DNA of 64,000 bases, from contig DNHS01000056.1 of assembly GCA_003485765.1 (NCBI GenBank), positions 8,064 to 72,063 of the forward strand, written 5' to 3'. A program made the position numbers and the translations under genes. Source of the DNA: Candidatus Omnitrophota bacterium (GTDB taxonomy: Bacteria > Omnitrophota > Gorgyraeia > Gorgyraeales > Gorgyraeaceae). The first letter of the stretch is position 1; every line of letters starts with the position of its first letter. Positions 46,126 through 63,722 of this stretch are shown here, in pieces. The notes under the pieces were generated by a model, which saw nothing but the letters and a program-made list of their open reading frames with translations, was not told the origin of the DNA and did not search any database.

Positions 46126-47022
46126 TTAGATTATACTATGCCTTTTTATCCTGGTCAAGAAAAAATTTCCAATAATATAACAATACATCTTGATCTCGTA
46201 TAATAATATAAACGGTAAATTTATTAAAAAACCAGCTATTGAATCATTTTTTTTCATGCATTTATATCTATTCCTTATATATTTTTTCTTTAATTCATCT
46301 GATATGCCTCTAAAGATGTCATTGCGAGGCCGTAGGCCAAAACAATCTTTATTTTCAATAACAGCCGTCGCGCCTCTCTCATGATACGCTGTTGCCATAG
46401 GATTATAATACGCCTTCCATCCCTTTTTCTGCGCCCTCCAGCATAAATCCAAGTCTTCATAGTATATCTCAAAGGTTTCATCAAAATACCCGTTTTTATC
46501 TTTTATATCGTCTAACATAACTTTTTTCATAAGCATGCACGAGCCGCTTACGCCAAAAACATATTCTGGTTTCTCGTGCTGACCTTTATCTAGTTTCCCA
46601 TACCCTCTCTCTAATGGCTTTCTGTTTCTGGCTACAAATAATCCCGTAGAATCTATTGTCTTTTTATCCGTCCTGAAAATCTTCCCGCTTACCATGCCTA
46701 TTCTTTTATCTAAGTTAAAAGAACTTAACGCCTCTTTTAAATAATCCTTATCCAGCACGCAATCGCTGTTTAAGCACAGTATAAAATCCCCCTTCGCCTC
46801 TTTTATGCCTTGATTGTTTGCCTTGCAAAAAAACAAGTTTTCTGTATTTTGCAATAATTTAACTTCAGGATACATGGCATTAACCATCCCACTGCTAGCG
46901 TCTAAAGAACTATTATCTACTACTATTACTTCTTTATCGCCAAAACTCTGCGTCATCACAGAATCTATGCAGCCTTTCAACAAATCTTTTCTATTATAAT
47001 TTACTATTATTACTGATATCAT
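46126..47022 (-). CDS. Glycosyltransferase family 2 (last gene of the RiPP-like operon; candidate peptide glycosyltransferase)
   Basis: 298 aa. ISVIIVNYNRKDLL...VVDNSS..., DxD-type motif (LNSDCV). Packed against the B2-like gene. Confidence 0.7.
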   Translation of the reverse strand: MISVIIVNYNRKDLLKGCIDSVMTQSFGDKEVIVVDNSSLDASSGMVNAMYPEVKLLQNTENLFFCKANNQGIKEAKGDFILCLNSDCVLDKDYLKEALSSFNLDKRIGMVSGKIFRTDKKTIDSTGLFVARNRKPLERGYGKLDKGQHEKPEYVFGVSGSCMLMKKVMLDDIKDKNGYFDETFEIYYEDLDLCWRAQKKGWKAYYNPMATAYHERGATAVIENKDCFGLRPRNDIFRGISDELKKKYIRNRYKCMKKNDSIAGFLINLPFILLYEIKMYCYIIGNFFLTRIKRHSII

Positions 47023-47027
47023 AATTT

Positions 47028-47447
47028 TTAAATAATTATATTACGAGGAGGAAAAATAAAACATACCTTAAAATCTTCGTTCATCTGAGGCTGAAGCTGC
47101 GCAAGATATGGTTTATCATCTAACGTAAGCCAGGCATGGCCATATATCTTTTCACTGTCGCCTTTTACGCCTATATTAATCCTGACTTCGATGCCTTTTT
47201 CCCTCAAAAATTTATAAAGAATCAAAGATCTTTTAAGACAGGTCCCTCGCCTGCTAAAAAATGGCGCTCGCAGCTTAAAAAATAAATCAAGATATTTTGT
47301 TATCTTTGATATATTCCATTCTCTTAATTTAGGAGGCCTGCAAGGCGTCCATGATTTAAGGATTTCAGGAAGAGGTTTTATATGTATTATGACTGGCAGA
47401 ATAAAAAATAGATAAGAAACTCTTGCAAAAAGAAAAATATCTTTCAT
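47028..47447 (-). CDS. Transglutaminase-like cysteine protease, lasso-peptide B2 / McjB C-terminal-domain family (candidate leader peptidase)
   Basis: Putative Cys/His/Asp triad within CLKRSLILYKFLREKGIEVRINIGV...GHAWLTLDD. Start chosen at MKDIF (47447), forming an ATGA overlap with the GT4 stop. Confidence 0.6.
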   Translation of the reverse strand: MKDIFLFARVSYLFFILPVIIHIKPLPEILKSWTPCRPPKLREWNISKITKYLDLFFKLRAPFFSRRGTCLKRSLILYKFLREKGIEVRINIGVKGDSEKIYGHAWLTLDDKPYLAQLQPQMNEDFKVCFIFPPRNIII

Positions 47448-48685
47448 GGCGATCTGCCTTCTGACTTGAGCGAATGCTCTAATAAAAGCGCCTTGCAAGC
47501 CATGACCCACTGCTGGATGCTTTCATCAAAATCCTCTGTCTTTTCAGAAAACTTCCTTGCCTTCTGGCCTATTTTTATCGCTATATCAGGGCTTTTTACG
47601 ATTGACTGCAATCTTCGCGCAAACTCCTTCGTATTATCAGGATCGACTATATAGCTATTTACGCCATCCTGCAGCATGCGGTATACCCCTTTTTCAGCCA
47701 CGCCTTTCCCAATAATAACACACCTGCCGCATGCCATTGCCTCCCTGGCAATCTTAGGATAATGCGTGTTTTTGGGAAGATAAGGCTCTTCAGAGGTTTC
47801 TGGAGAAACAACGCAGGTAGCTGAATTTATAAGAGCCGGCATTCTCCATGGAGCTTGAAAAGGTAGAAACACGGCTTTCCCGCCTAATCCTTTTGAGTGG
47901 ACATACTTCTTCAGCAATAATGATCTTTCATTATTACCCACCACAAATATCAGCCTGAATTTTTCTTTTTTTATGCTACTGCACGCATCTACAAAATTAA
48001 ATGATTTTTTAAGCTTTGAAACTTTGCCTATATATAAAAATGTAGTCATTTTTTCTTTTTTGTTTTTCCTTGAATATAAAGACATATCGAATGGCTTAAC
48101 GTCGGGATGAAACGCTTTTAAGTCTATAGATCTTCGCAATCCAATTATAAATTTATCCCGGCTTATTTTACATCTCCTTAAAATTTTCCGGCTATGTCGC
48201 TGTGTAGTCGATATCTTATCAGCGCCTTTAAATATTTCTATAAAAAGTGATTTTAAAGACGGCGAATCAAATAACCGGGTTATATCGCTTCCAGCGTGAG
48301 CAACCATAAATGGTTTTTTAGTGATATATTTTGCCATCAAACCAGCCACTCCATAAGGCATAAGATATTCTGAATAAATAAGGTCTATGTCATATTTTCT
48401 TATGACCTCAATAGCTATATTGACTAACTTTGGAATATACGGATTGTATGAAGGAATAAAAAACGGCGTATCGCAAGCTGTGCTATGCACCCTTACGTTC
48501 TTTGGTTCAAATTGGCCAGGCTTATTTTCTAAGATTTCCTCGCGATAATCCCCTTCAACCTCCATGCAGTTAGTAACGACGTGCACCTTATGATTTAATT
48601 CGCCCAATCCTCTGGCTAACCAGTATATTCCGGATGATACCCCGCCTTCTATTGGAGGATACTTGCTAATAATGCATATCTTCAT
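47444..48685 (-). CDS. Glycosyltransferase family 1 (GT4-type)
   Basis: 413 aa. N-terminal KICIISKYPPIEGGVS and a C-terminal GT4 E-x7-E-like region. Confidence 0.75.
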   Translation of the reverse strand: MKICIISKYPPIEGGVSSGIYWLARGLGELNHKVHVVTNCMEVEGDYREEILENKPGQFEPKNVRVHSTACDTPFFIPSYNPYIPKLVNIAIEVIRKYDIDLIYSEYLMPYGVAGLMAKYITKKPFMVAHAGSDITRLFDSPSLKSLFIEIFKGADKISTTQRHSRKILRRCKISRDKFIIGLRRSIDLKAFHPDVKPFDMSLYSRKNKKEKMTTFLYIGKVSKLKKSFNFVDACSSIKKEKFRLIFVVGNNERSLLLKKYVHSKGLGGKAVFLPFQAPWRMPALINSATCVVSPETSEEPYLPKNTHYPKIAREAMACGRCVIIGKGVAEKGVYRMLQDGVNSYIVDPDNTKEFARRLQSIVKSPDIAIKIGQKARKFSEKTEDFDESIQQWVMACKALLLEHSLKSEGRSP

Positions 48686-49670
48686 ATTTATGTTTTATCA
48701 ACCTCTTTAAAATCAAAGATAAATTAGCAGGAGACTTTATTATATCTTTTCCGCCAAGAAGCAAATAAGAGCGGCATTGCTTAGCCAGCTTTTTCAAAAT
48801 CTCCATAGCTTCAACATGATGATCTCTAACCGGCTCAAGCGATGAGAACATAAGATTTTCAACTATCTTTATCATCGCTTCATTCGAAGAAAGAGGCATG
48901 AGTTTACTTTTCTTTTTATGCGTTATCGTAGGAAATACAATAAAATTCGGAGCAGAAGCTTTTTTATAACAAGCTTTACGCCTTGCGCATACCCCTGTCC
49001 CTTTTTCGTGATCCCTGCGCAGCATTCTGGTTGGAAACGGATAAACTTTCACCTTGGAATTTGAGCGGCATAAAAACGATATATCATCTCCGCGGCAAAT
49101 AAAACCAGCCTTAGTAAGATTTATAGAAATAGTGGTTTTTCCGTATCCGCTATCGCCCGGAAATAATATACTAACATCGCCCTTTGTCAAATAAGCTGCA
49201 TGTAAGGCGAAAAAACCTCTGATTCTAAAAAAATACATCAACATAATGCGGATAGAATTTCTAAAACTCCTTGGTTTAACCTGGCCTGTAGTAAACAACA
49301 AAATTTTATTTTGATGGTAAAGCCCTGCCATGGGCGAAATTTCGCCATAGTTTCCAAGATGCCTGAGATATCTTACATCTTTGATATCTTTAAAATACTG
49401 AGGCCCTTTAAAATCTTTAGAAACGCCGGGCTGCCAATCTGTTTCGGCCGGCATATCTAAAGGAATCTGAGAAAGGTCCTTGACTGAAATAACTACCATG
49501 GTAACATCAGGTTGCTTTTTTTTAACAATGTCTTTGACAAGATACATTTTGTCAATAGCTCTATAAAAAGAGCTGTTATCTGTCATTATCCTGACAGATA
49601 GACCTCCGATCAGACATGTTTCTGTGAACCTATAGCATTTATTAAAATATGGTGTAAAATCAATTTTCAT
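48666..49670 (-). CDS. HPr-kinase-related (HprK C-domain-like) P-loop kinase, candidate precursor-peptide kinase
   Basis: 334 aa. LHAAYLTKGDVSILFPGDSGYGKTTISINL...GDDISFL resembles the HprK Walker-A region. Such kinases accompany PqqD/B2 genes in lasso-peptide loci. Confidence 0.55.
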   Translation of the reverse strand: MKIDFTPYFNKCYRFTETCLIGGLSVRIMTDNSSFYRAIDKMYLVKDIVKKKQPDVTMVVISVKDLSQIPLDMPAETDWQPGVSKDFKGPQYFKDIKDVRYLRHLGNYGEISPMAGLYHQNKILLFTTGQVKPRSFRNSIRIMLMYFFRIRGFFALHAAYLTKGDVSILFPGDSGYGKTTISINLTKAGFICRGDDISFLCRSNSKVKVYPFPTRMLRRDHEKGTGVCARRKACYKKASAPNFIVFPTITHKKKSKLMPLSSNEAMIKIVENLMFSSLEPVRDHHVEAMEILKKLAKQCRSYLLLGGKDIIKSPANLSLILKRLIKHKYEDMHY

Positions 49671-50817
49671 TTGTAAAAGATGGGCTAAAAGCTGTACTTA
49701 TATGCAGGTTTTTCTTTTCCGGCCATCTCCTAAAAGCTGTTTGAAGAGGAAGCTTTTTAAAAACTCGCCAACATTGCGGGTCTGGCGCGGATAATTGATT
49801 GAAGTATGCATGGCTTATGCACAGCGCTCCTCCATGACAGAATTTAAAATTGCGGCATTTCTGGCACAAAGAGTGCGCATTATTCAAATTTCTCAACTGC
49901 CATAATATATCTGAAGAAAAATATACTTCTAGCAGGCTCTTTTGCAGGACATTTCCTACTTTTATAGGAAGCCGCCTGCATGCTAGAACATCGCCATTAG
50001 GAAACAAAGACAATGTCCTGCCTTCGACCACTCCGCAGCACACTTTCCTATGAGCCATGTCTCCTGTTAAAGCGCTGTTAAATATGCCGTCCTCGCATCC
50101 ATTGGCAATATGAAGCTTGCTATGTTTCGCCCTTAATTCAATGCGCATTTTTCTTTTCCAATGATAAATTTTTCTTAATTCTTCCGGGCTTAATAAGTTA
50201 AACTTGTTTTCTTTGCCCTTTCCGATAGGGACAAACCTCCTTATGCCAACCTTTCCAACTCCTAGCTTTTCGCATAGCTGGACAAGCGCAGGCACATCAG
50301 CCATATTTTTCCTTGTCAGCGTAAAAGAAACAGCGGTTCGCATGCCTGTGTTTACCAATAACTTGGCTTTCTCAATTACTTTATCAAAGCTGCCTTTTTC
50401 GCGTATATTGTCATTATTTTCCTGCATGCCTTCAAGGCTCAACTGCACCCTTTTAACTCCCAAAGATTTCAACTTTAAGGCATTTTTCTCGTTAATAAGA
50501 GAGCTGTTGGTCAAAATGCCTACGGTAAATCTGCCCTTATTATATTTATTTACAAATTTCAATAACCGGAAAAAATCTTTTCTGATAAATGGTTCTCCGC
50601 CGGCAAAGTTAAGATAAGAATGGCCCTTTGGCGAGTTTAAAGCTTTAAGCAAATCCAGATACTGGAAAAAGATATCGCATAATTTAGCGAATGGCAGCTC
50701 TTTCATGTTTTCTTTTTCCCTATAACAATGCTTGCAGCTCCAATTACACCTCTCAGTTATATGCCACTGAAGGGTAAAGGCGCGAAAAAAATCAAAATAA
50801 TGAGGTATGGTTTCCAT
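49660..50817 (-). CDS. Radical SAM enzyme with C-terminal SPASM domain (RiPP maturase candidate)
   Basis: 385 aa. CNWSCKHC (CxxxCxxC) near the N-terminus. C-terminal Cys cluster (CCGVVEG...C...CQKCRNFKFCHGGALC) typical of SPASM auxiliary Fe-S domains. Confidence 0.8.
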   Translation of the reverse strand: METIPHYFDFFRAFTLQWHITERCNWSCKHCYREKENMKELPFAKLCDIFFQYLDLLKALNSPKGHSYLNFAGGEPFIRKDFFRLLKFVNKYNKGRFTVGILTNSSLINEKNALKLKSLGVKRVQLSLEGMQENNDNIREKGSFDKVIEKAKLLVNTGMRTAVSFTLTRKNMADVPALVQLCEKLGVGKVGIRRFVPIGKGKENKFNLLSPEELRKIYHWKRKMRIELRAKHSKLHIANGCEDGIFNSALTGDMAHRKVCCGVVEGRTLSLFPNGDVLACRRLPIKVGNVLQKSLLEVYFSSDILWQLRNLNNAHSLCQKCRNFKFCHGGALCISHAYFNQLSAPDPQCWRVFKKLPLQTAFRRWPEKKNLHISTAFSPSFTNEN

Positions 50818-50825
50818 ACTATGTA

Positions 50826-51107
50826 TTAAGCTGTAATTTCTACCATCTTCTCTTTTATAAGTTTTTTTATCTGGCGATTTACGCTAGCGAATGCTTTATC
50901 TTTATCAACGTCATATTCATCCACTATCGCATCGGTTATTTCTCCAATAGTCTTTTTGCCATCCAAAAGCTGCCAAATCCTTACTCCCGCCTCATTAAGC
51001 CTATAAAAATACTTTGTTTCAAAATTTAAAAGAACAGCTTCTTTGTTATCCAGTTCAGTATAGATTATGGACGGCTTAACTCTTAAGCGCTGTTTGGGGT
51101 TTATCAT
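50826..51107 (-). CDS. PqqD-family protein (RiPP recognition element), copy 1
   Basis: 93 aa. Pattern L.N.T...Y.LN..G..IW.LLDG..T..EI matches PqqD/RRE. Confidence 0.7.
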   Translation of the reverse strand: MINPKQRLRVKPSIIYTELDNKEAVLLNFETKYFYRLNEAGVRIWQLLDGKKTIGEITDAIVDEYDVDKDKAFASVNRQIKKLIKEKMVEITA

Positions 51108-51372
51108 ATAAACTCAATACGCCTGTTTTTGATAACTTATTTATAAAGCTGCTGGCATCTTTTTTCGCTGTCTCATAATTAACGTCGAATTCTTTAAGTA
51201 CGGCGTCTATAATTTTATTTACCTTTGTTTTGCCATCCGCCAAATTCCATATAAAGCTTCCCATGGGATTAAGAAAGTAAAAAGCATTGTCCTTTAGATT
51301 TAAAATAACTGTTTCTCCGTCTATTATTCTACAGTGAAGCTTTTTACCAGGTAATACGTATTTGTCAAGCAC
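51076..51372 (-). CDS. PqqD-family protein (RiPP recognition element), copy 2
   Basis: 98 aa. IDGETVILNLKDNAFYFLNPMGSFIWNLADGKTKVNKII PqqD pattern. GTG start with AGGGAGG RBS. Overlaps copy 1 by 32 nt. Confidence 0.7.
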   Translation of the reverse strand: MLDKYVLPGKKLHCRIIDGETVILNLKDNAFYFLNPMGSFIWNLADGKTKVNKIIDAVLKEFDVNYETAKKDASSFINKLSKTGVLSLYDKPQTALKS

Positions 51373-51515
51373 AATGCCTCCCTTTACCTTATTGAGTATA
51401 AAATACTGCTAAGATTAAGAAATATCAAGAAAATAATTAAGTTTTCAGGTAGGATTTATTAGGAATGATGGCGTTTCTTTATCTTTTCTATAAACATCCT
51501 TTGGGTTTAATATAA

Positions 51516-51659
51516 CTAAGCGCAGGAGGTACAACTGGCGCAGCTGGAACAACTCGTGCCTACCCGATTATTCAGTTTTCCTTCTTTTTTCAACTGCGGT
51601 TCTTTAAAAAACTTTTTGTATTCTGGTTTTTGATATTGTTTTTTATTATTCTTGTCCAT
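51516..51659 (-). CDS. Candidate RiPP precursor peptide (47 aa): MDKNNKKQYQKPEYKKFFKEPQLKKEGKLNNRVGTSCSSCASCTSCA
   Basis: Not in the ORF track (<60 aa). Manual translation of the minus strand. AAGGAGGA RBS 5 nt upstream of the ATG, own promoter, Lys-rich leader, C-terminal C-x-x-C-x-x-C-x-x-C Ser/Thr-rich core. First gene of the operon. Confidence 0.6.
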   Translation of the reverse strand: MDKNNKKQYQKPEYKKFFKEPQLKKEGKLNNRVGTSCSSCASCTSCA

Positions 51660-51685: not shown

Positions 51686-51714
51686 AGTATAAAAGATATA
51701 TTAAAATTGGTCAA
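51686..51714 (-). promoter_or_regulatory. sigma70-like promoter (TTGACC-17nt-TATACT) for the precursor operon
   Basis: Minus-strand TTGACC at 51714-51709 and TATACT at 51691-51686, about 27 nt upstream of the precursor ATG. Confidence 0.45.
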
Positions 51715-51901: not shown

Positions 51902-53059
51902 ATGCATAACGCATTATCCAAATCCAGTCTTTTATTGAATAAAAATTCTCCTCTTCCAAGTCTAAATAACGCTGAATTAGAGATAGTCCTTAAAGAATCT
52001 TTATACCATAGCCTTACAAATCTTATCTATTTAACTATAAAAACATCGGATAGATACAAAGAATTAATTCATCATCCTGCATTTTCTCGTCTAAAAAATA
52101 GCTATTTTATGACAGTTAAGGATAATATGCTGAAACAGAAAGAGTTTATTGATATTAGCAATGCTTTTGAAACCGCTGACATACTTATGGTTCCTATCAA
52201 AGGCATGGCTTTATTATTTGATGTTTTCCAAGATAATTTAAGCCGGCCTATGGCTGATATAGATATTTTAATAAAGAAAAATGACCTGGAAAAAGCTAAA
52301 CAGCTCATGCAAGGTCTTGGCTATAAAGCAGCTCTCGGAAATTTTTCAGAAAGATATTATACTGATTATTACCATCATCTGCCTTTTTTTAAAGCATCTA
52401 TGGTAGAACTGCATTGGGATCTTGCAGTTCCAAGGCCGAATAAAATTATTTTACCTGAGTTGTGGGATAGATTGCAAAAGATTGAGCATAATAACGCCTT
52501 TTTAAACATCCTCTCTCCAGAAGACACGATATTCTCGCTTGCGCTTCATTTAAGAAGATTTAACACACCATTCTCATTAAAGCCCATATACGATATTTAT
52601 AGAATAATGGAAAAATACGATAAAGAAATAGATTGGGAGTATCTATCAAAATACAGCGGATTAAACAGGCTAAACTCTATTATCTATTACTCCCTGGTTT
52701 CTGTTAAAACAATATTTGAATATCCTATATCTGAAAAAGAACTGGGGATGTTTTACCCTGGTATATTAAGAGCGTCTTTATTAAAATTATTTATAAATAG
52801 GGTCAAGAATAGAGGCGTTACGAGACTTATAAAATCTGCTTCTTTTAGAAAATACGCCTATATATTTTTACGTTTTTTATTATATGACCGCTTGTGGGAT
52901 CTTATAAAATTCATAATACTTATACCTGAGGAAGAATTCAGCCGTTTCTATTCAATCGAATTTCCCTCAAAAGTATCATCCGCTATTTACAGTCTTAGAT
53001 TTTTGGCCATGCCTTTTCTAGCCTTATTAGACAGGTTTTCTAAAAAATCATCTATATAG
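51902..53059 (+). CDS. Nucleotidyltransferase-family protein (PF14907-like uncharacterised NTase)
   Basis: 385 aa. Pol-beta-like NTase core hinted by ...GMALLFDVF...RPMADIDILI. Divergent from the precursor operon. This family co-occurs with HprK-like kinases in lasso-type loci. Confidence 0.5.
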   Translation: MHNALSKSSLLLNKNSPLPSLNNAELEIVLKESLYHSLTNLIYLTIKTSDRYKELIHHPAFSRLKNSYFMTVKDNMLKQKEFIDISNAFETADILMVPIKGMALLFDVFQDNLSRPMADIDILIKKNDLEKAKQLMQGLGYKAALGNFSERYYTDYYHHLPFFKASMVELHWDLAVPRPNKIILPELWDRLQKIEHNNAFLNILSPEDTIFSLALHLRRFNTPFSLKPIYDIYRIMEKYDKEIDWEYLSKYSGLNRLNSIIYYSLVSVKTIFEYPISEKELGMFYPGILRASLLKLFINRVKNRGVTRLIKSASFRKYAYIFLRFLLYDRLWDLIKFIILIPEEEFSRFYSIEFPSKVSSAIYSLRFLAMPFLALLDRFSKKSSI

Positions 53060-56466: not shown

Positions 56467-57527
56467 GCTATGCGCGAGGTAGGCATAAGCTCTTTTACTG
56501 ACTCGACTACCTTTTCCATAGATATCTTATCCATACAGGTTTGTTTCTTATCGCATTTATTCTTATAACATGGGGCGCACTTTGCTTCTGTGATTATTTT
56601 AGAGCCTAGATTATATAAATCTATTTCCTGAGCACAGGTAGGGCCAAAAAGCGCAACAACCGGTTTTTTAAGCGCTATTGCCATGTGCATTGCAAGCGTA
56701 TCGGCTGCTATAATCAGCCCGCAATTATTAATCAATGCAGTGAATTCCTTAAGGCTATTGTCGCATCCGCTATCAATTACTTTACCATCCATTGCTTTTC
56801 TAATATATTTATGGATATCCTTTTCAAAAGGCCCTCCAAGTAATATTATTTTCACATTTAATTCTTTACACAATAACTCTATTAGACTAACTAACCTATT
56901 TTTTCCTAAGTTCTTATTTGCAAAAACCCTGCCTGCCCCTGTATTGATGCCAATAACAATATCGTCTTTATCTAACCCGTTCTTCTTGAAAAAACTGTCT
57001 GCAAAATCAATATGTTTTTTATCTAACTTTAATTCATAAGGATTGTTTTGATAGTTAAGTTTTGCTGTTTCAAATATTAGCTCCTGATAGGTCTTTTTAT
57101 TTTTAAAAAATTTTAACTCATCATCTATGCCTAACAGATAAGAATAACTCGCTTCCTTATTCAAAGGGCATAACTTGCCTTTTTTATCCAAGCCAAAGCC
57201 ATATTTTTCAGAAGCCCTGACAGACATAGCCAGAGAAGCTGCTTCAATAGCCTTATCTAAAGATATAACAATATCGAACTCTTCTCCGTTTAGCAGTAAA
57301 ACGCTCTTTTTGCTATAAACCAAAATCCGGTTTATGCTATCATTGCCTTCTAAAAGTTCCAGCGCTAACTCTTCGACAATCCATGTTATATGACTATATG
57401 GATATTTTTTCTTTAATCCAGATAAAAGCGTAGTTGTCCTTAAAACATCTCCTGCTGAAGCTAATTTGATAATTAAAATCTTTTTACTATTACAAGAAAT
57501 TGACATGTTCTCTAGGCTGTTTAACAT
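56463..57527 (-). CDS. Glycosyltransferase family 9 (LPS heptosyltransferase-like)
   Basis: 354 aa. KILIIKLASAGDVLRTTTLL... is the GT9 N-terminus. C-terminal GPTCAQEI... region. Confidence 0.75.
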   Translation of the reverse strand: MLNSLENMSISCNSKKILIIKLASAGDVLRTTTLLSGLKKKYPYSHITWIVEELALELLEGNDSINRILVYSKKSVLLLNGEEFDIVISLDKAIEAASLAMSVRASEKYGFGLDKKGKLCPLNKEASYSYLLGIDDELKFFKNKKTYQELIFETAKLNYQNNPYELKLDKKHIDFADSFFKKNGLDKDDIVIGINTGAGRVFANKNLGKNRLVSLIELLCKELNVKIILLGGPFEKDIHKYIRKAMDGKVIDSGCDNSLKEFTALINNCGLIIAADTLAMHMAIALKKPVVALFGPTCAQEIDLYNLGSKIITEAKCAPCYKNKCDKKQTCMDKISMEKVVESVKELMPTSRIA

Positions 57528-58563
57528 TCCAAAGTATCTGATTAAATGTATTATCTCTGCACAATGGTATGCAATTGCGAAAATCTATCCTATTTATAGC
57601 TTTAACCCTTTCTTCGGAATTCCAGATATACTTAAAACTTTTCTTTTTAAGGTCCCCTATGCAATATTTATTATAACCCCTAGTGTGGCAGCATATATAC
57701 ATCTTTCCCGTAGCGGATATCACAGTGGCAAACTGCTGGCCGTAACATTTCTTATAATACCTTCCAAACTTAGAGTCATGTGCCATCTCGTATTTATGCT
57801 GGGAATACAAAACCTTGAATTTGTTGCCTGAATATTTAAGGCAATTTACTATCTCATCCTGGACATCTGCCCAATAATACCTGAACTTTCCTCCGTTATG
57901 GATCTGCATAGGCCTGAATTGCAGATAATCAACACCTAATCTATCTGCTAGCAGCGTTGCCTTCATCATATCCGGTTTTGTATAATCACTAGTTAAGAAA
58001 CCTATTCCTACATTGCATAAACTTTTTATTTTTTTCTTTATTTTTACCAATAAAGCTATATTTTTTATGATTTTATTAAACTCGTTTCCATCAAGGCCAT
58101 GCGTCAGTTTAAATACTCCGGGCGATCCTGCATCCAAAGATACCCTCAGCCATGTGCAGTTATTTAAAAGAACGCTCGATGACTTATGGTCTAATAATGA
58201 CCCGTTCGTTATGAAACCCACGTCAAGGCCCTTTGAGCGGGCAAGCTTAACCATGTCCAGCGTGCAGGGATTGCATAAGGGCTCTCCGCCTCCTGTAAAT
58301 ATTAATCCTTTTATTTTGTTTTTTGCAAGCTGCAAGATAATTTTTTTAGCAAGTCTGGGGGTAAGAAAACTTCTATCATTGATTCTGAAATAATTTACAA
58401 CGCACTCCTGGCATCTATGATTACATATATTTGTCATATCCAATTCTACTGTGATTGGAGGCGTATTCTTTCCATTCAACCAATCATTTACCCTATCTAA
58501 GTGCTTCAATATCTTGTCGGAGCTAAACTGCCTCACATCAATCTGTCTTAAATCCATGCCCAC
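57490..58563 (-). CDS. Radical SAM protein with C-terminal Cys-rich (SPASM/twitch-like) region, embedded in the glycan locus
   Basis: 357 aa. CNHRCQEC (CxxxCxxC), GGGEP motif, C-terminal CC...C...C..C cysteines. Confidence 0.7.
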   Translation of the reverse strand: MGMDLRQIDVRQFSSDKILKHLDRVNDWLNGKNTPPITVELDMTNICNHRCQECVVNYFRINDRSFLTPRLAKKIILQLAKNKIKGLIFTGGGEPLCNPCTLDMVKLARSKGLDVGFITNGSLLDHKSSSVLLNNCTWLRVSLDAGSPGVFKLTHGLDGNEFNKIIKNIALLVKIKKKIKSLCNVGIGFLTSDYTKPDMMKATLLADRLGVDYLQFRPMQIHNGGKFRYYWADVQDEIVNCLKYSGNKFKVLYSQHKYEMAHDSKFGRYYKKCYGQQFATVISATGKMYICCHTRGYNKYCIGDLKKKSFKYIWNSEERVKAINRIDFRNCIPLCRDNTFNQILWNVKQPREHVNFL

Positions 58564-58775: not shown

Positions 58776-61700
58776 TTACCTTCTAAAGGTTAAATTCTCA
58801 GATTGTTCTGAAGCTAAGACCTCTATAGCAGCTTTATCTCCGTGCAAAGCCAGGGCCTTACCAATAATAGGGAATACAGTGCAAACTAGCCAGCATGAAC
58901 ACTTACCAGAATCTATAAAATCTCTTACCTCACAAGCCTTGTTAGAATCCCATATATAGTCCATCTTATTATCTCTTATATTTCCTATTGTTTTTTCTTT
59001 TAAAAGCGGGCAGAAAAACATATTTCCATAAGGATCGAGCATTACAAATTTAAATCCGGCATTGCAATCATAAGCAAATCTGCTTTTTGTCTTTTGGAAA
59101 TCTACAAGATGGGACCAGTAATATATTTTAGTGAAAAGATTTATTTTACCCCTCACCGTAGACATATTATTATAAAAATCCTCCGGGCTAGAAACCTTTC
59201 TGATAATGCGTTCCAGTATTTGCCCGATATGGCCCTCTATTCTTTCAAGATCTTTATTGCTCCATTTAAATACCTCGCTTTGCCTGGACTCTTTTGGCAC
59301 CCCAAACTGGGCAAAAAAATCAATGCCATTTTTATCAGCAAATTCCCAGCAAGGCACCAGCTGATCCGTATTAAAAGGCGTCAAAACAAAAGTAAGACTA
59401 AAACGCACTTCCGGAAGCTCTTTCTTAAAGAATTCTAATGTTTTCACAAAACCGCTGAATCCGCCATCAACGCCCCTTATCTTGTCGTAAGCATCTCCAA
59501 GCCCATCAAGAGAGCTTCCTATCCATATAGCATTTGTTTTGATCTTTTTAAGAATCTGCTTCATTTTCGAAACTATGACTTCTGTATTTATGCCATTTGT
59601 AAGAATTCCTAAAGATGCTTGCGGCAGCGTATCTTTTATCGCAAAACATATATCTACAAAATCAGGCCTAAGAAAGGGTTCTCCTCCGGACAGGACAACG
59701 GTCTTTATGCCCTTTAACGCATTTGAACCTGATAAAAGTTTCTTGATATCATCTAGAGAAATTTCATCTTTTACGCTTTTGCCTGTTCTTTTATGAATGT
59801 CCCAGATATCGCATGTAATGCACTTGCTGTTGCATAAATGAGTAAGTTCGACATGCAATTCTTCCGGTTTCATATTAATATCCTTAGAATATTCTTTATT
59901 CAAATAATCAAGAGACAGTTTTATAATATCGTCTGTTTTTTTAACAATATCTTTCATGATGCTATCTGAAGACGGTAAACGCTTATCCGCGCCAACAGGC
60001 TTGATAACAGAACCTTCGGGCCTTATTGCAATTCTATCTATTTCCATAACATCAGCGTAAATGTTGTCTAATTTTTGGACTACCTTATTCCAGTCATATT
60101 TTTCCTCTACAAGAAGTCTTGCTTGCCTGGCTATTCTTTTATACAATGCGTCATTATTGAAAAGCTCTGTTACATATCTTGCAAAATCTTTGGGTTTGTC
60201 AGATATTAAAATATTAAAGCCGTTTTCCGCATCTATCCCGCAAGAGCCTCGCGTTGTAGATACAACAGGTGTCCCTGTAGCCATAGCTTCCAATATCTTG
60301 CCCTTTATCCCTGCGCCTACCCTGGAAGCGCATACGAACAGAGAGGCATTATGAAGATATGGCTTAACGTCAGGCACATCACCTATGACTTCTACGCCTT
60401 TGATGCTTGAAAGCCTCAGCACATTTTCAGTAGGTCCTGACCCTACAAGCTTAACAGTTGCTTCCGGGATTAATTTTTTTATCAAAGGAAAGATTTTACG
60501 GCAGAAATATACAGCTGCTTCCTCATTTGGATAATGAGGGTAGTGTCCGACAAATATCAGAGATTTATCTCTACCTGTCTTATCTTTAAATTCAAAATGC
60601 TCGATATCTACTCCTGTAGGCACATAAGAAAAGTCTGAATTAGGAGAAAATACCCTGACTACGCGCATATCTTCTTTTGATAAAACAATTATTTTATCGA
60701 GATTTTTATAAAAAGAGTTGTGGCTATGTACGATTTTCATGTAATCTATTATACCCGGTAAAACATATCTCGTATTTTTTTTATAATAAGACTTATGCGG
60801 CGACAGTATGCTGATATCGTGCTCGGTATATACGATGGGAATATGCTTGACAAATCTGGTAAGGTACAAAAGCTCGTTTGATTCTATGTGGGCAAGATCT
60901 ATGGAAAGCCTGCCTTGAATTTCATTTAATTTCTCTATTAAGAAACTGCTGAACGAATGCCTGTAGCGGTTTGGAAATAAAAATTCATTAACCTTAGTTT
61001 GCCTATCTATTAAATGTATTTCTTTGAAAATATCTTTCATGGAATTAGACTTAGCGTATTCTGAATCTTTTTCATGATGCGCGAGAGACAGGAGCACTAT
61101 ATCGTAGTTTTTAGACAGGCGCTTGTATAAGTTATACATCCTTATCTTCCCTCCGCTATTAAGCGGATATGGTATAAAAGGCGTTATTAAAAGAACTGTC
61201 TTCTTATCAGAATGTACAAAGTTATTGCGCATAAAATTCCTGTAGTAAAGCAAGCTTCTGTCTAAAACCCTCTTATCTTTTACTTCAGCATATCTGAATT
61301 CCTTAAACCTATTAACTAAAGCAGGTATTATATAATTTAATGCCCAGACATACCCTATTAAAAATGTTAACCTTGTGCTATGGCGCCCTTTTAATAAAAA
61401 TTTTGGCAAATTATTAAAGTGGCTTAAGACCATGTTATTATCCCTTAGATTCTTCCACATAAACAACAGTTCATTCTTTATTTCTTTATGCCTTACATAA
61501 TTCAGCGTGGCCGCGCCTTTATGATACATTATGCTGTTCGGTTCATATAAAACTTTCAATCCTCTTTTTTGCGCCCTGTATGAAACATCTATATCCTCCC
61601 AGCAATTAGGCCTGTATATGTCGTCAAAACCCCCCATCCATAAAAAATCTTTCTTGCGGAAACACATTGCGCCTCCTACAGCGAAAACTGTAGGGGAAGT

Positions 61701-63722
61701 CTGCGATACCTTATCGCTATTGCCTGTCTCAGCCTCATTCCACAGATTAAGATAGCCATCCTTAAATTTCCCCATATGCATTCCATAATTAAAACTCTTC
61801 ATGTCCCAATAATAAAGCTTCGGAGATACAGCAAATACTTCTGGATCTTTAAAATGCGCTTTCAGAGGGTCCAGGAATCCCCTTGAGACCATAATATCAT
61901 TATTTAATAAAACTATGAGTTCCCCTTTAGCTTCTCTGACGCCTCTATTGCATGTTTTCCCAAATCCCTGGTTGCCCCTATTTCTGATTACTCTAACCTT
62001 AGGAAAATCATCTTTGATGACCATAGCTATACTCTGGCTGCTGGCATCATCTACCACTAAAATCTCATATCCGTCTTCCTTAAAGCCATCCGCTTCACAT
62101 AAAGAAGACAGGCATTTTTTAAGAAAATTCAGGCCATTCCAATTAGGTATAACTACACTTACAGTTAAATTATCAAAATGCACTATTTCTCTTTTTTTTC
62201 TAAAATAACGCGATAATTTTCCAAAAAATAATTCCAAAGATACCTCTAAAGTAAAAAGCAGAGCATGAGCTAATAATATCGGGCTTATAAAAAAAATCAT
62301 GGCTGTCCAGACAAGAACAGCCGCCTTTTTTGCTGCATACTTTAATGTAGCCCGCATATGCCACATAATCTTCCATAGCGGGCTCAATATAAACCTATAT
62401 CCTTCGGAATTATATATGCCTAATAATTGTTTCCGAGCCTCATCTAGTTTACTTGTAACATTATTTAGCTGGCTAGTTTTATCTAGTATAATATCATCTT
62501 TAGCAGTTCCTTCATCTAGACTTATCTTCAATTTATCTGTCAGCTTAGATATTTCTTCTTTGTAAGCGCCAAGCTCTTCTTTAATGGCAAGTACTTCTTC
62601 GGAAAGCTGCTTTATTTTGTGTTCTTTTTCCTGAATGATATTCTCTTTGTCATGTAAATTACTAGATAAACTAGATATTTGCTTTTTATCTAATTCTATA
62701 TCTTTTTGATATTTTTCCTCCTGCATTTTACACCAATTTCTATCTTTTTTTGTTCCTATTAAATCGTCCAAAAGACTTTTTAATTCCATTTCCATCTTTT
62801 TATTTTCATAATTTGTAATATTTTTAAGCTCTTCGAATAAATCTTTTATTATGCCATCGCTTATTAATCGGCCGTGTTCTTTGAGCAATTTCAGGAATAC
62901 TTGCGCCGTTAAATCAAAAAATCTGCCGCTATTTAAATTATCTTTGTTTGCAATAAAATAACTATTCCCGATTAACGACTTTGCAAGCTTGTCCGGATAA
63001 TGTTTAGCTATGAACAATAACCTATTCTTTTCTATTGCTTCGCGCGAAAATTCTTCATTACAGCTTCCATGTTTTTTATGATAAGCTACGCTTGAGGGAG
63101 CAAATATAAGCCTCCAGCCTTTTTTTCTAAATCTAATAGACATATCCACATCTTCTCCAAACATCAAAAAATCTTCATCAAATAAGCCTATGTCTCGTAA
63201 TGCTGATTTTCTGTAAAGAACGCTTGCCCCGCACACAGCCTCTAGATCTGTCACGTAGTTGAATTCCTTTGGTTTTTTGCCAGCGCCCCTCTCGTCCCAA
63301 TAAAAATTAGGCAGTTCATACAGGCCTGCATTCTGAATAAGCCCGCTCTTCTCCAGCAGCATGCTAGACACGGCGCCTACAGATCTGTCTTTTTCTATCG
63401 GTTTAACCAGTTCTGAAAGCCAGCCTTTTTTAACCACAACATCATTATTCAATAAAACGACGTAGCTTCCTCTTGACTCTAAAATACCAAGATTACATGC
63501 CTGGCAGTAATTATTCTGCCTATTTTCTATGACCTTCACCTTTTTATACTTATGTTTGATAAATTTTACAGAATCGTCCGTAGAGGCATTATCAACAACT
63601 ATGATTTCTAGCCTTGCTTTAGGATACCCTGTTTTCCATAACGAATCCAAGCATCTTTTTATAAGCTTCTTATTATTAAAATGCACGATAACTATGCTGA
63701 CAAAAGGGCTTTTAATGGCCAT
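58776..63722 (-). CDS. Giant 1648-aa multidomain protein: GT2 - coiled coil - GT2 - GT1(GT4) - radical SAM/SPASM-like
   Basis: Two GT2 N-terminal signatures (VSIVIVHFNN...VVDNASTDDS; VSVVIPNWNG...VVDDASSQS), a heptad-rich segment around aa 300-420, a GT4 region (VLLITPFIPYPLNSGG), and a C-terminal CNSKCITC radical-SAM motif followed by Cys-rich C-terminus. Confidence 0.75.
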   Translation of the reverse strand: MAIKSPFVSIVIVHFNNKKLIKRCLDSLWKTGYPKARLEIIVVDNASTDDSVKFIKHKYKKVKVIENRQNNYCQACNLGILESRGSYVVLLNNDVVVKKGWLSELVKPIEKDRSVGAVSSMLLEKSGLIQNAGLYELPNFYWDERGAGKKPKEFNYVTDLEAVCGASVLYRKSALRDIGLFDEDFLMFGEDVDMSIRFRKKGWRLIFAPSSVAYHKKHGSCNEEFSREAIEKNRLLFIAKHYPDKLAKSLIGNSYFIANKDNLNSGRFFDLTAQVFLKLLKEHGRLISDGIIKDLFEELKNITNYENKKMEMELKSLLDDLIGTKKDRNWCKMQEEKYQKDIELDKKQISSLSSNLHDKENIIQEKEHKIKQLSEEVLAIKEELGAYKEEISKLTDKLKISLDEGTAKDDIILDKTSQLNNVTSKLDEARKQLLGIYNSEGYRFILSPLWKIMWHMRATLKYAAKKAAVLVWTAMIFFISPILLAHALLFTLEVSLELFFGKLSRYFRKKREIVHFDNLTVSVVIPNWNGLNFLKKCLSSLCEADGFKEDGYEILVVDDASSQSIAMVIKDDFPKVRVIRNRGNQGFGKTCNRGVREAKGELIVLLNNDIMVSRGFLDPLKAHFKDPEVFAVSPKLYYWDMKSFNYGMHMGKFKDGYLNLWNEAETGNSDKVSQTSPTVFAVGGAMCFRKKDFLWMGGFDDIYRPNCWEDIDVSYRAQKRGLKVLYEPNSIMYHKGAATLNYVRHKEIKNELLFMWKNLRDNNMVLSHFNNLPKFLLKGRHSTRLTFLIGYVWALNYIIPALVNRFKEFRYAEVKDKRVLDRSLLYYRNFMRNNFVHSDKKTVLLITPFIPYPLNSGGKIRMYNLYKRLSKNYDIVLLSLAHHEKDSEYAKSNSMKDIFKEIHLIDRQTKVNEFLFPNRYRHSFSSFLIEKLNEIQGRLSIDLAHIESNELLYLTRFVKHIPIVYTEHDISILSPHKSYYKKNTRYVLPGIIDYMKIVHSHNSFYKNLDKIIVLSKEDMRVVRVFSPNSDFSYVPTGVDIEHFEFKDKTGRDKSLIFVGHYPHYPNEEAAVYFCRKIFPLIKKLIPEATVKLVGSGPTENVLRLSSIKGVEVIGDVPDVKPYLHNASLFVCASRVGAGIKGKILEAMATGTPVVSTTRGSCGIDAENGFNILISDKPKDFARYVTELFNNDALYKRIARQARLLVEEKYDWNKVVQKLDNIYADVMEIDRIAIRPEGSVIKPVGADKRLPSSDSIMKDIVKKTDDIIKLSLDYLNKEYSKDINMKPEELHVELTHLCNSKCITCDIWDIHKRTGKSVKDEISLDDIKKLLSGSNALKGIKTVVLSGGEPFLRPDFVDICFAIKDTLPQASLGILTNGINTEVIVSKMKQILKKIKTNAIWIGSSLDGLGDAYDKIRGVDGGFSGFVKTLEFFKKELPEVRFSLTFVLTPFNTDQLVPCWEFADKNGIDFFAQFGVPKESRQSEVFKWSNKDLERIEGHIGQILERIIRKVSSPEDFYNNMSTVRGKINLFTKIYYWSHLVDFQKTKSRFAYDCNAGFKFVMLDPYGNMFFCPLLKEKTIGNIRDNKMDYIWDSNKACEVRDFIDSGKCSCWLVCTVFPIIGKALALHGDKAAIEVLASEQSENLTFRR

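Follow-up and report, generated by a model that had tools for sequence, protein, structure and literature searches.

A conserved cysteine-rich peptide gene linked to a radical SAM/SPASM enzyme and lasso-type leader-handling proteins in Omnitrophota

In lasso peptide clusters of Firmicutes, a homologue of HPr kinase phosphorylates the C-terminal serine of the precursor, and a nucleotidyltransferase adds hexose to that phosphate (PMC8498205). Such clusters, including those for paeninodin and pseudomycoidin, place both enzymes and a split B1 (PqqD) and B2 pair beside a small precursor gene (PMC8498205). Ranthipeptides, among them the SCIFF peptides (enzymes CteB and PapB), and sactipeptides instead combine a Cys-rich core with a radical S-adenosylmethionine (rSAM) enzyme bearing a SPASM domain and with a recognition element for peptides that are made on ribosomes and modified after translation (RiPPs), the RRE, that binds the leader. 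Features of both groups surround a 47-codon open reading frame (ORF) at 51516..51659 on the minus strand of a 64,000-nt stretch of contig DNHS01000056.1 (assembly GCA_003485765.1, Candidatus Omnitrophota bacterium), the whole of which is referred to here as the window. We propose, with a probability of roughly 0.8, that this ORF encodes a RiPP precursor and stands first in a tightly packed modification operon. The cluster is lasso-like at the leader end and sactipeptide-, ranthipeptide-, or SbtM-like at the core end, and it falls short of the defining thresholds of every one of these systems. We regard it as an rSAM-modified, RRE-dependent RiPP cluster, whose chemistry has a realistic chance of defining a new class.

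The 47-codon ORF is a real, conserved protein-coding gene under purifying selection. Compared with a homologue that encodes a 66% identical peptide (locus L090), divergence is 0.19 at nonsynonymous sites (pN) and 0.86 at synonymous sites (pS). Codon position 3 is identical in 23 of 47 codons and positions 1 and 2 in 37-38 of 47, and one Ser before a Cys is retained through a switch between the TCC and AGC codon classes. The closest relative of the window locus is L002, whose rSAM enzyme is 89% identical; here the leader shows only synonymous changes and a few replacements, and the core differs by an in-frame 9-nt indel amounting to one extra S-T-C unit. The ORF was already among the genes predicted by a gene caller on a public Logan contig, and a hidden Markov model (HMM) of the precursor family finds it at E 7e-25 as the sole match in the window, with no second copy. 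The pattern CxxCxxCxxC occurs once in the six frames of the window, against 0.075 occurrences expected from shuffles.

Direct reading of the minus strand gives the product MDKNNKKQYQKPEYKKFFKEPQLKKEGKLNNRVGTSCSSCASCTSCA, 47 aa plus a stop codon, with the ATG at 51659-51657 and the stop at 51518-51516. A ribosome-binding site (RBS), AAGGAGGA (51672-51665, minus strand), lies 5 nt before the ATG and is kept in L002. Upstream of the gene stands a promoter-like site, TTGACC-17-TATACT (51686..51714, minus strand; 10/12 matches), which is nearly unchanged in L002 (TTGACT, same -10); matches of this kind show no enrichment in the AT-rich sequence here (38% GC), 29 having been found against 23 expected. 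ORF, RBS spacing, and promoter-like site all agree with a preliminary description of this DNA. A second in-frame ATG (51665), two codons upstream of 51659, overlaps the RBS and is missing from L002; we therefore take 51659 as the conserved start and the 47-aa form as the product.

A gap of 143 nt separates the precursor from the first PqqD gene. Within it, a block of about 55 nt (51400..51455, minus strand) is virtually identical in the window and L002, unlike the sequence just past the precursor stop codon, which has diverged. The block contains a promoter-like TTGATA-17-TATTTT and could serve the enzyme genes as an internal promoter. A structured RNA or attenuator between the two genes was considered and rejected, as the interval folds no better than its shuffles (z +1.37) and yielded neither an Rfam match nor a terminator.

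Six-frame searches of the fetched loci gave ten close homologues of the precursor, and the same picture came from a word-indexed search of 5.8 billion proteins. When 1.84 billion representative proteins were searched exhaustively with an HMM, 16 representative precursor clusters emerged at E <= 1e-3; a metagenome scan with degenerate patterns from the alignment yielded, among the matches listed, at least one new confirmed locus (L090). All family members with a source name are from Omnitrophota; here and below, the taxonomic labels of many contigs from metagenome-assembled genomes are uncertain. The family alignment shows a strongly conserved leader, kept across the 16 clusters at 35-45% identity, and a variable core. 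The leader has a Lys-rich N-terminus, the motif Y-x-(K/R/N)-P-x-x-K-K and, nine residues later, F-x-x-P-x-(M/L/I)-K-K; these two (Y/F)-x-x-P-x-h-K-K motifs are followed by K-(F/L)-N-x-x-(I/V)-G-(T/S). The window peptide carries Y9-Q-K-P-E-Y-K-K, F18-K-E-P-Q-L-K-K-E-G, and then N-x-x-V-G-T-S. We place the leader at residues 1-36 (51552..51659, minus strand), from the conserved alignment columns, and the putative core, CSSCASCTSCA, at residues 37-47 (51519..51551, minus strand), in the variable region of the alignment. The boundary is put, by analogy, where a lasso B2 protease would cleave, after T(-2)-x(-1).

In most family members the core reads ...C-x-(V/I)-V-Y-G-(A/S)-C-x-x-C-(x)-A/V. The window peptide, P0127, and the L002 and L090 peptides form a branch with (S/T)-C-x repeats, in which the Ser or Thr before each Cys is retained and the third residue varies (S/A/T vs. 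N/G/V); the S-C-x period is kept in L090. The array had been described as (C-x-x)4. It does contain four Cys at three-residue spacing, each preceded by Ser, but is strictly (S-C-x)3-S-C-A and not four full C-x-x units. The tripeptide periodicity, singled out in the same description, is limited within the family to this nearest branch, but reappears in what seem to be further substrates of the same rSAM clade. Most family members end in Ala or Val, and a terminal Ser of the lasso-kinase type is usually absent. None of the curated NCBIfam precursor models matched the ten family members tested (E up to 10). Matches of the thiopeptide, heterocycloanthracin, and listeriolysin S models on the Cys-rich tails of family members were at noise level and were discarded, as was a Pfam match to HEPN_AbiA_CTD (16.8 bits; cutoff 27).

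Two further kinds of ORF were observed near precursors or precursor-like genes. Directly upstream of the precursor in three loci (L083:7324-7701, L085:7258-7716, and L089:5357-5752) lies a gene for a protein of 125-152 aa with a hydrophobic N-terminus; the copies are 43-53% identical, the L083 copy has no NCBIfam match, and the gene is absent from the window. Precursor-like ORFs with a Y-x-E/A-P-R-V leader and CGCGCGC-type ends occur at L052:3097-3348, L052:4902-5099, and L064:5560-5811, in loci that also carry rSAM, PqqD, and PF14907 genes and, in L064, an HprK-like kinase gene. These ORFs suggest a wider superfamily of precursors.

The genes around the precursor form a conserved set. In the window, the precursor is followed by two PqqD genes and by genes for the rSAM/SPASM enzyme, an HprK/ScmC-like kinase, a family 4 glycosyltransferase (GT4), a B2-like protease, and a family 2 glycosyltransferase (GT2), then by rpsO and pnp; downstream of the 143-nt gap, the operon genes overlap or lie <=8 nt apart. 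On every longer contig examined, precursors stand beside an rSAM/SPASM enzyme, two PqqD proteins, an HprK/ScmC-like kinase, and a lasso-B2-like protease, a gene set common to L001, L002, L082, L083, and L084/L085. In L082, L083, and L084/L085 the rSAM enzyme, kinase, two PqqD proteins, and B2 protease recur at 54-59% rSAM identity with the precursor in a different position; L090 has the order PqqD-PqqD-precursor, and the L089 contig stops at the precursor. GT4 and PF14907 genes often accompany precursor loci. Precursor homologues adjoin orthologous rSAM and/or PqqD genes in seven loci (L002, L004, L008, L082, L083, L085, and L090), which is the linkage that the preliminary description had proposed looking for. 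This linkage, the purifying selection, and the further members recovered by profile search support its suggestion that the peptide is a precursor for the adjacent rSAM and PqqD enzymes.

Both PqqD-type leader-binding proteins are well above the Pfam PqqD cutoff of 23.4 bits. The first (51076..51372, minus strand; 98 aa, GTG start) scores 62.9 bits, and the second (50826..51107, minus strand; 93 aa), which overlaps it by 32 nt, scores 64.7 bits; the pair is kept in L002, L004, L082, L083, L085, and L090. The best natural solved relative of the first is the lasso B1 protein TbiB1 (E 9e-9), and the lasso-type B1 model NF033536 gives 52 and 49.6 bits for the two, below its cutoff of 80. The lasso-B2-like protein (47028..47447, minus strand; 139 aa, read from an ATG overlapping the GT4 stop) is a transglutaminase-fold cysteine protease by its Pfam Transglut_core3 match and scores 45 bits with NF033537 (lasso_biosyn_B2), above the cutoff of 33. 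Its Cys, in C-L-K-R-S-L-I-L-Y, and its His, in G-H-A-W-L, are invariant in four orthologues. The P-loop kinase (48666..49670, minus strand; 334 aa) gives sub-cutoff matches to HprK_rel_A (E 1.7e-10) and ScmC (E 3.4e-5); its orthologues carry PF27840 ScmC and PF07475 Hpr_kinase_C matches and have an invariant P-loop, G-(D/N)-S-G-x-G-K-T-T. PDB sequence searches with the protease and the kinase returned nothing useful.

Three further genes may contribute to the pathway. The GT4 gene (47444..48685, minus strand; 413 aa; Pfam) also lies within the cluster in L002, L082, and L084/L085. The GT2 gene (46126..47022, minus strand; 298 aa; Pfam), last before rpsO and present in L001/L002, would belong to the peptide pathway by its packing in the operon. 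A divergent gene on the plus strand (51902..53059; 385 aa) encodes a PF14907 nucleotidyltransferase (Pfam NTP_transf_5, 142.7 bits), and its counterparts lie close to the rSAM gene in about a dozen related loci.

The resemblance to phosphorylated and phosphoglycosylated lasso clusters thus covers B1-like and B2-like proteins, an HPr-kinase homologue, and a nucleotidyltransferase, and it may extend into the leader. Set against the lasso pattern Y-x-x-P-x-L-x3-G-x5-T-x, the window leader reads F18-x-x-P-x-L-x3-G27-x7-T35-x, with Phe for Tyr, a spacing off by two, and a G-T-x junction. The preliminary description had likened the Thr two residues before the core to the conserved Thr(-2) of lasso leaders; this position is T, S, K, or G in the family and so is lasso-like only loosely, but the F-x-x-P-x-L-x-x-x-G stretch does resemble the lasso recognition motif. 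Unlike lasso clusters, the locus has an rSAM/SPASM enzyme in the central position and two B1-like proteins, and the peptide C-terminus is usually Ala or Val rather than Ser. No Asn-synthetase-like lasso cyclase (PF00733) was found among the cluster genes, the window ORFs of >=500 aa, or L082-L085. We rejected a lasso peptide on this ground and because the core, CSSCASCTSCA, like most cores of the family, has no Asp or Glu, one of which a lasso macrolactam needs at core position 7-9 for ring closure.

The rSAM/SPASM enzyme (49660..50817, minus strand; 385 aa; Pfam Radical_SAM and SPASM) carries a CX3CX2C motif and a complete SPASM domain, the cysteines of both being conserved. Among solved structures, the SCIFF thioether synthase CteB is nearest to it (E 6e-13), with SkfB next. 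Because the alignment covers CteB residues 99-425, the window enzyme has no N-terminal recognition domain (RRE) of its own, which fits the free-standing PqqD proteins. Among NCBIfam models it scores 180.6 bits with ACGX (cutoff 400), 144.4 with SbtM (TIGR04082; cutoff 350), 143.9 with GeoRSP, and 131.5 with MftC, and about 82-86 bits with the PapB and StsB models (PapB 81.6, cutoff 340). SbtM, a radical SAM thio(seleno)oxazole maturase and the second-best match, is the sole characterised enzyme among the three top-scoring families. Its system differs from that of the window, where the score is sub-cutoff, the match covers only the C-terminal two thirds of the model (positions 195-516), and no selenocysteine occurs.

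Comparison with other rSAM systems gives the same picture of partial likeness. The locus resembles ranthipeptide, SCIFF, and sactipeptide systems in its Cys-rich core, rSAM/SPASM enzyme, and RRE, but its RREs are separate proteins, its Cys spacing and leader are different, and it has a kinase and a B2 protease. The likeness to SCIFF noted in the preliminary description does not amount to family membership: no precursor model matched, the PapB score is far below cutoff, and CteB is a distant pairwise match. The same is true of its comparison with ACGX (TIGR04340/TIGR04341). ACGX is the best-scoring rSAM family and has a periodic Cys precursor, but the score lies below half the cutoff and the window precursor, which has no NCBIfam match, has a period of 3, not 4 as in ACGX or 5 as in the Cys-every-fifth system (CefB, NF038107); a B2 protease is also added. 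The architecture of rSAM, PqqD, and HprK-like (ScmC) proteins recalls the SynChlorMet cassette (ScmC/D/E/F), whose models all score below cutoff (ScmC 23.3 against 125; ScmD 38 and 41 against 100; ScmE 86 and ScmF 83 against 400). GeoRSP groups with these Cys-periodic rSAM systems, which Haft defined bioinformatically, and the window enzyme is likewise below its curated cutoff. The searchable literature yielded no account of the ACGX, CefB, SynChlorMet, or GeoRSP systems, the term ScmC being swamped by unrelated acronyms.

By its motifs and full-length similarity, the window enzyme belongs to an rSAM clade of 973 proteins (E <= 1e-20) and 484 confirmed genome loci, marked by two invariant signatures, QWHITERC and CRRLPIKVGN, and covered by no curated family. 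The labels of its contigs name Omnitrophota, Patescibacteria, DPANN archaea, Desulfobacterota, Nitrospinota, and Clostridia, among others. An extra Cys (C241) is shared by the enzymes of the window and L083, in an insertion missing from the five more distant clade members aligned. We considered the SPASM cysteine count as a test of an open or closed auxiliary cluster and drew no inference from it, the C241 insertion being confined to these two among the enzymes aligned.

The window precursor fits a wider pattern in this clade, in which a neighbouring gene encodes a product with a tail of Cys and small residues. Across 80 loci surveyed, with a tail defined as at least 3 Cys and at least 17 C/G/S/A/T residues among the C-terminal 25, such a tail ends <=2.5 kb from the rSAM gene in 25; most belong to TIGR04222 proteins encoded directly upstream of more distant clade members. 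The rate is 0.076 tails per kb near the rSAM gene and 0.020 per kb farther away, a fourfold difference. In L054-L081 the tail is usually carried by a protein encoded immediately ahead of the rSAM gene (for example L060:5042-6004, L081:4835-5947, and L069:4924-5934), typically a TIGR04222-type membrane protein of 300-390 aa ending in (CGG)n or (CSS)n, such as ...CGGCGGCGG; the TIGR04222-type tail of Clostridium sp. LP20 (L060; NZ_JBPUTF010000006.1) is (CSS)6. A second, separate and well-conserved set of peptides, from Syntrophorhabdaceae and others (group B; L086:7001-7135 and P0131-P0153), has the leader K-K-R-K-Y-E-K-P-x-I-x-K-E-x-K-M-x-F-P and the near-invariant C-terminus V-C-(R/K)-Q-C-S-S-C-H-(G/S)-C-R, and matches no NCBIfam model. 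The group B peptide adjoins a clade rSAM enzyme, one PqqD protein, and a 1118-aa metallo-beta-lactamase-fold protein. Because both the TIGR04222 tails and the group B peptides show it, the three-residue Cys period recurs among the apparent substrates of the clade, as (S-C-x)n in the window, CxxCxxCxxC in the Syntrophorhabdaceae peptides, and (CGG)n or (CSS)n in the TIGR04222 proteins; the periodicity therefore carries more weight than it would from the Omnitrophota family alone.

In Patescibacteria- and archaeal-labelled loci, small proteins or ORFs with Cys/Gly/Ser-rich tails were also observed 1-4 kb from the rSAM gene (L024:9745-10098, L028:9704-10045, L010:4106-4399, and L043:4507-4746). 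At least three of these proteins have a hydrophobic N-terminal segment, and no PqqD gene is near.

From these comparisons we infer the biochemical steps, the cleavage site, and the enzyme-substrate assignments of a possible pathway. The Lys-rich leader, with its two (Y/F)-x-x-P-x-h-K-K motifs, would be bound by the free-standing PqqD-type proteins, which would present the core of Cys and small residues to an rSAM/SPASM enzyme that has no recognition domain of its own. The enzyme would abstract a hydrogen at or near Cys, and the core cysteines would be modified by radical chemistry. The leader would then be removed by the lasso-B2-like cysteine protease, with cleavage close to the conserved (I/V)-G-(T/S)-x, and the kinase, glycosyltransferases, and nucleotidyltransferase may add further decorations. 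The core Ser and Thr, named in the preliminary description as plausible targets of the kinase and glycosyltransferases, are candidate sites. Since family members mostly end in Ala or Val, the kinase must have a target other than the C-terminal Ser of lasso peptides.

For the rSAM step, we tentatively and only slightly favour an independent, SbtM-type modification of each Cys to a 5-thiooxazole, giving a metal-binding peptide. This preference follows from the position of SbtM as the only characterised enzyme among the top three families and from the TIGR04222 proteins. [quoted passage not shown] The rSAM clade relatives sit behind uniform (CGG)n arrays of this same type, which is the point of likeness to the MNIO thiooxazole peptides (bufferins), again within what that part of the study covers. 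The searchable literature contained no description of a TIGR04222-rSAM pairing or of the present cluster architecture. Taken together, the rSAM clade could be an oxygen-independent counterpart of the MNIO enzymes that reads a cysteine-every-third-residue code and converts each Cys to a thiooxazole-type metal-binding group, a module combined in Omnitrophota with lasso-type recognition, proteolysis, and phospho-glycosylation to form a RiPP class with no described member. We consider this combined proposal unlikely to hold in all its parts.

The same precursor and pathway would also accommodate an rSAM enzyme that makes intramolecular thioether crosslinks, as in sactipeptides and ranthipeptides, with each Cys sulfur bonded to a residue close by, at its alpha, beta, or gamma carbon, so that small rings form. 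CteB and SkfB, the closest solved relatives, speak for this chemistry, as do the PapB and StsB matches; a Cys-rich core with SPASM and RRE is its classical signature, and Cys-rich SPASM substrates have precedent. The PapB and StsB scores, however, are lower than those of SbtM, MftC, and AhbD and far below their own cutoffs, and SCIFF precursor models found nothing in the family. Crosslinking also fits poorly with the substrates, since the long uniform (CGG)n arrays of clade relatives leave only Gly as acceptor and the window family core, at 11-15 residues, has no separate acceptor half. We regard thioether formation as a credible if somewhat doubtful outcome.

Several observations weigh against the pathway as we have drawn it, and against thiooxazole formation in particular. 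First, the NCBIfam matches of the rSAM enzyme are all far below cutoff and bunched at 127-181 bits; sequence similarity therefore singles out no chemistry. The closest solved relative makes thioethers, and the link to MNIO enzymes and thiooxazoles is an analogy across two inference steps. Second, several family members have only one or two core Cys, so a multi-Cys array is not essential. Third, the B2-like protease shows no clear conservation of its third catalytic residue among the four orthologues, and the window operon contains no transporter gene. Finally, the glycosyltransferase genes may belong to a neighbouring glycan cluster and not to the peptide pathway.

This last point can be taken further, to a role of the peptide and its enzymes in cell-envelope glycan assembly, for example as a (phospho-)glycosylated peptide made with the flanking Wzy, GT9, GT2, and GT4 proteins and not as a diffusible product. 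In the window, a large glycan cluster adjoins the operon; Wzy_C, ABC2-type exporters, PMT_2, a WecA/MraY-type transferase, and a phosphodiesterase occur in related loci; and in four distinct loci the operon includes GT4. Adjacency alone, however, is no proof of a shared pathway, and the glycan genes vary by locus whereas the rSAM enzyme, PqqD proteins, kinase, and B2 protease are constant. In lasso clusters, moreover, the same types of kinase and nucleotidyltransferase decorate the peptide itself (PMC8498205). We consider a glycan-assembly role improbable. We judge it very improbable that the product is a Cys-rich mini-protein that binds metal and stays unmodified, or that the ORF arose by chance within conserved regulatory DNA, the neighbouring enzymes in either case acting on something else: four Cys could bind metal unaided and the surrounding intergenic DNA is also highly conserved between the window and L002, but selection is purifying at 66% identity, the leader is conserved across the 16 clusters, linkage to PqqD and rSAM genes holds despite changed gene order, and stand-alone PqqD proteins imply a peptide substrate.

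If the proposed pathway holds, the ORF represents a family in which lasso-type B1/B2 leader handling, a kinase, and a nucleotidyltransferase serve an rSAM enzyme instead of a lasso cyclase, and leader-handling and tailoring modules would be interchangeable between RiPP classes. For a large, uncharacterised clade of rSAM/SPASM enzymes with hundreds of loci, it would also provide a substrate that is small and tractable. For the modification of TIGR04222 Cys-rich tails, an open question in the MNIO/bufferin literature (PMC12452194), the clade would offer a possible answer. As Omnitrophota are uncultured, heterologous reconstitution of the five-gene core is a realistic route to their peptide chemistry.

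A second rSAM/SPASM gene in the window (57490..58563) was considered as an orthologue of the extra rSAM genes in L082, L083, and L089 and was left out of the pathway because its similarity to them is only weak. It lies, with GT9, GT2, Wzy_C, and GT4 genes, in the glycan cluster directly upstream of the peptide operon. This cluster is headed by a single 1648-aa ORF (58776..63722, minus strand) that joins a pair of GT2 domains to a GT4/GT1 domain and, at the C-terminus, to one of the radical SAM/SPASM type.

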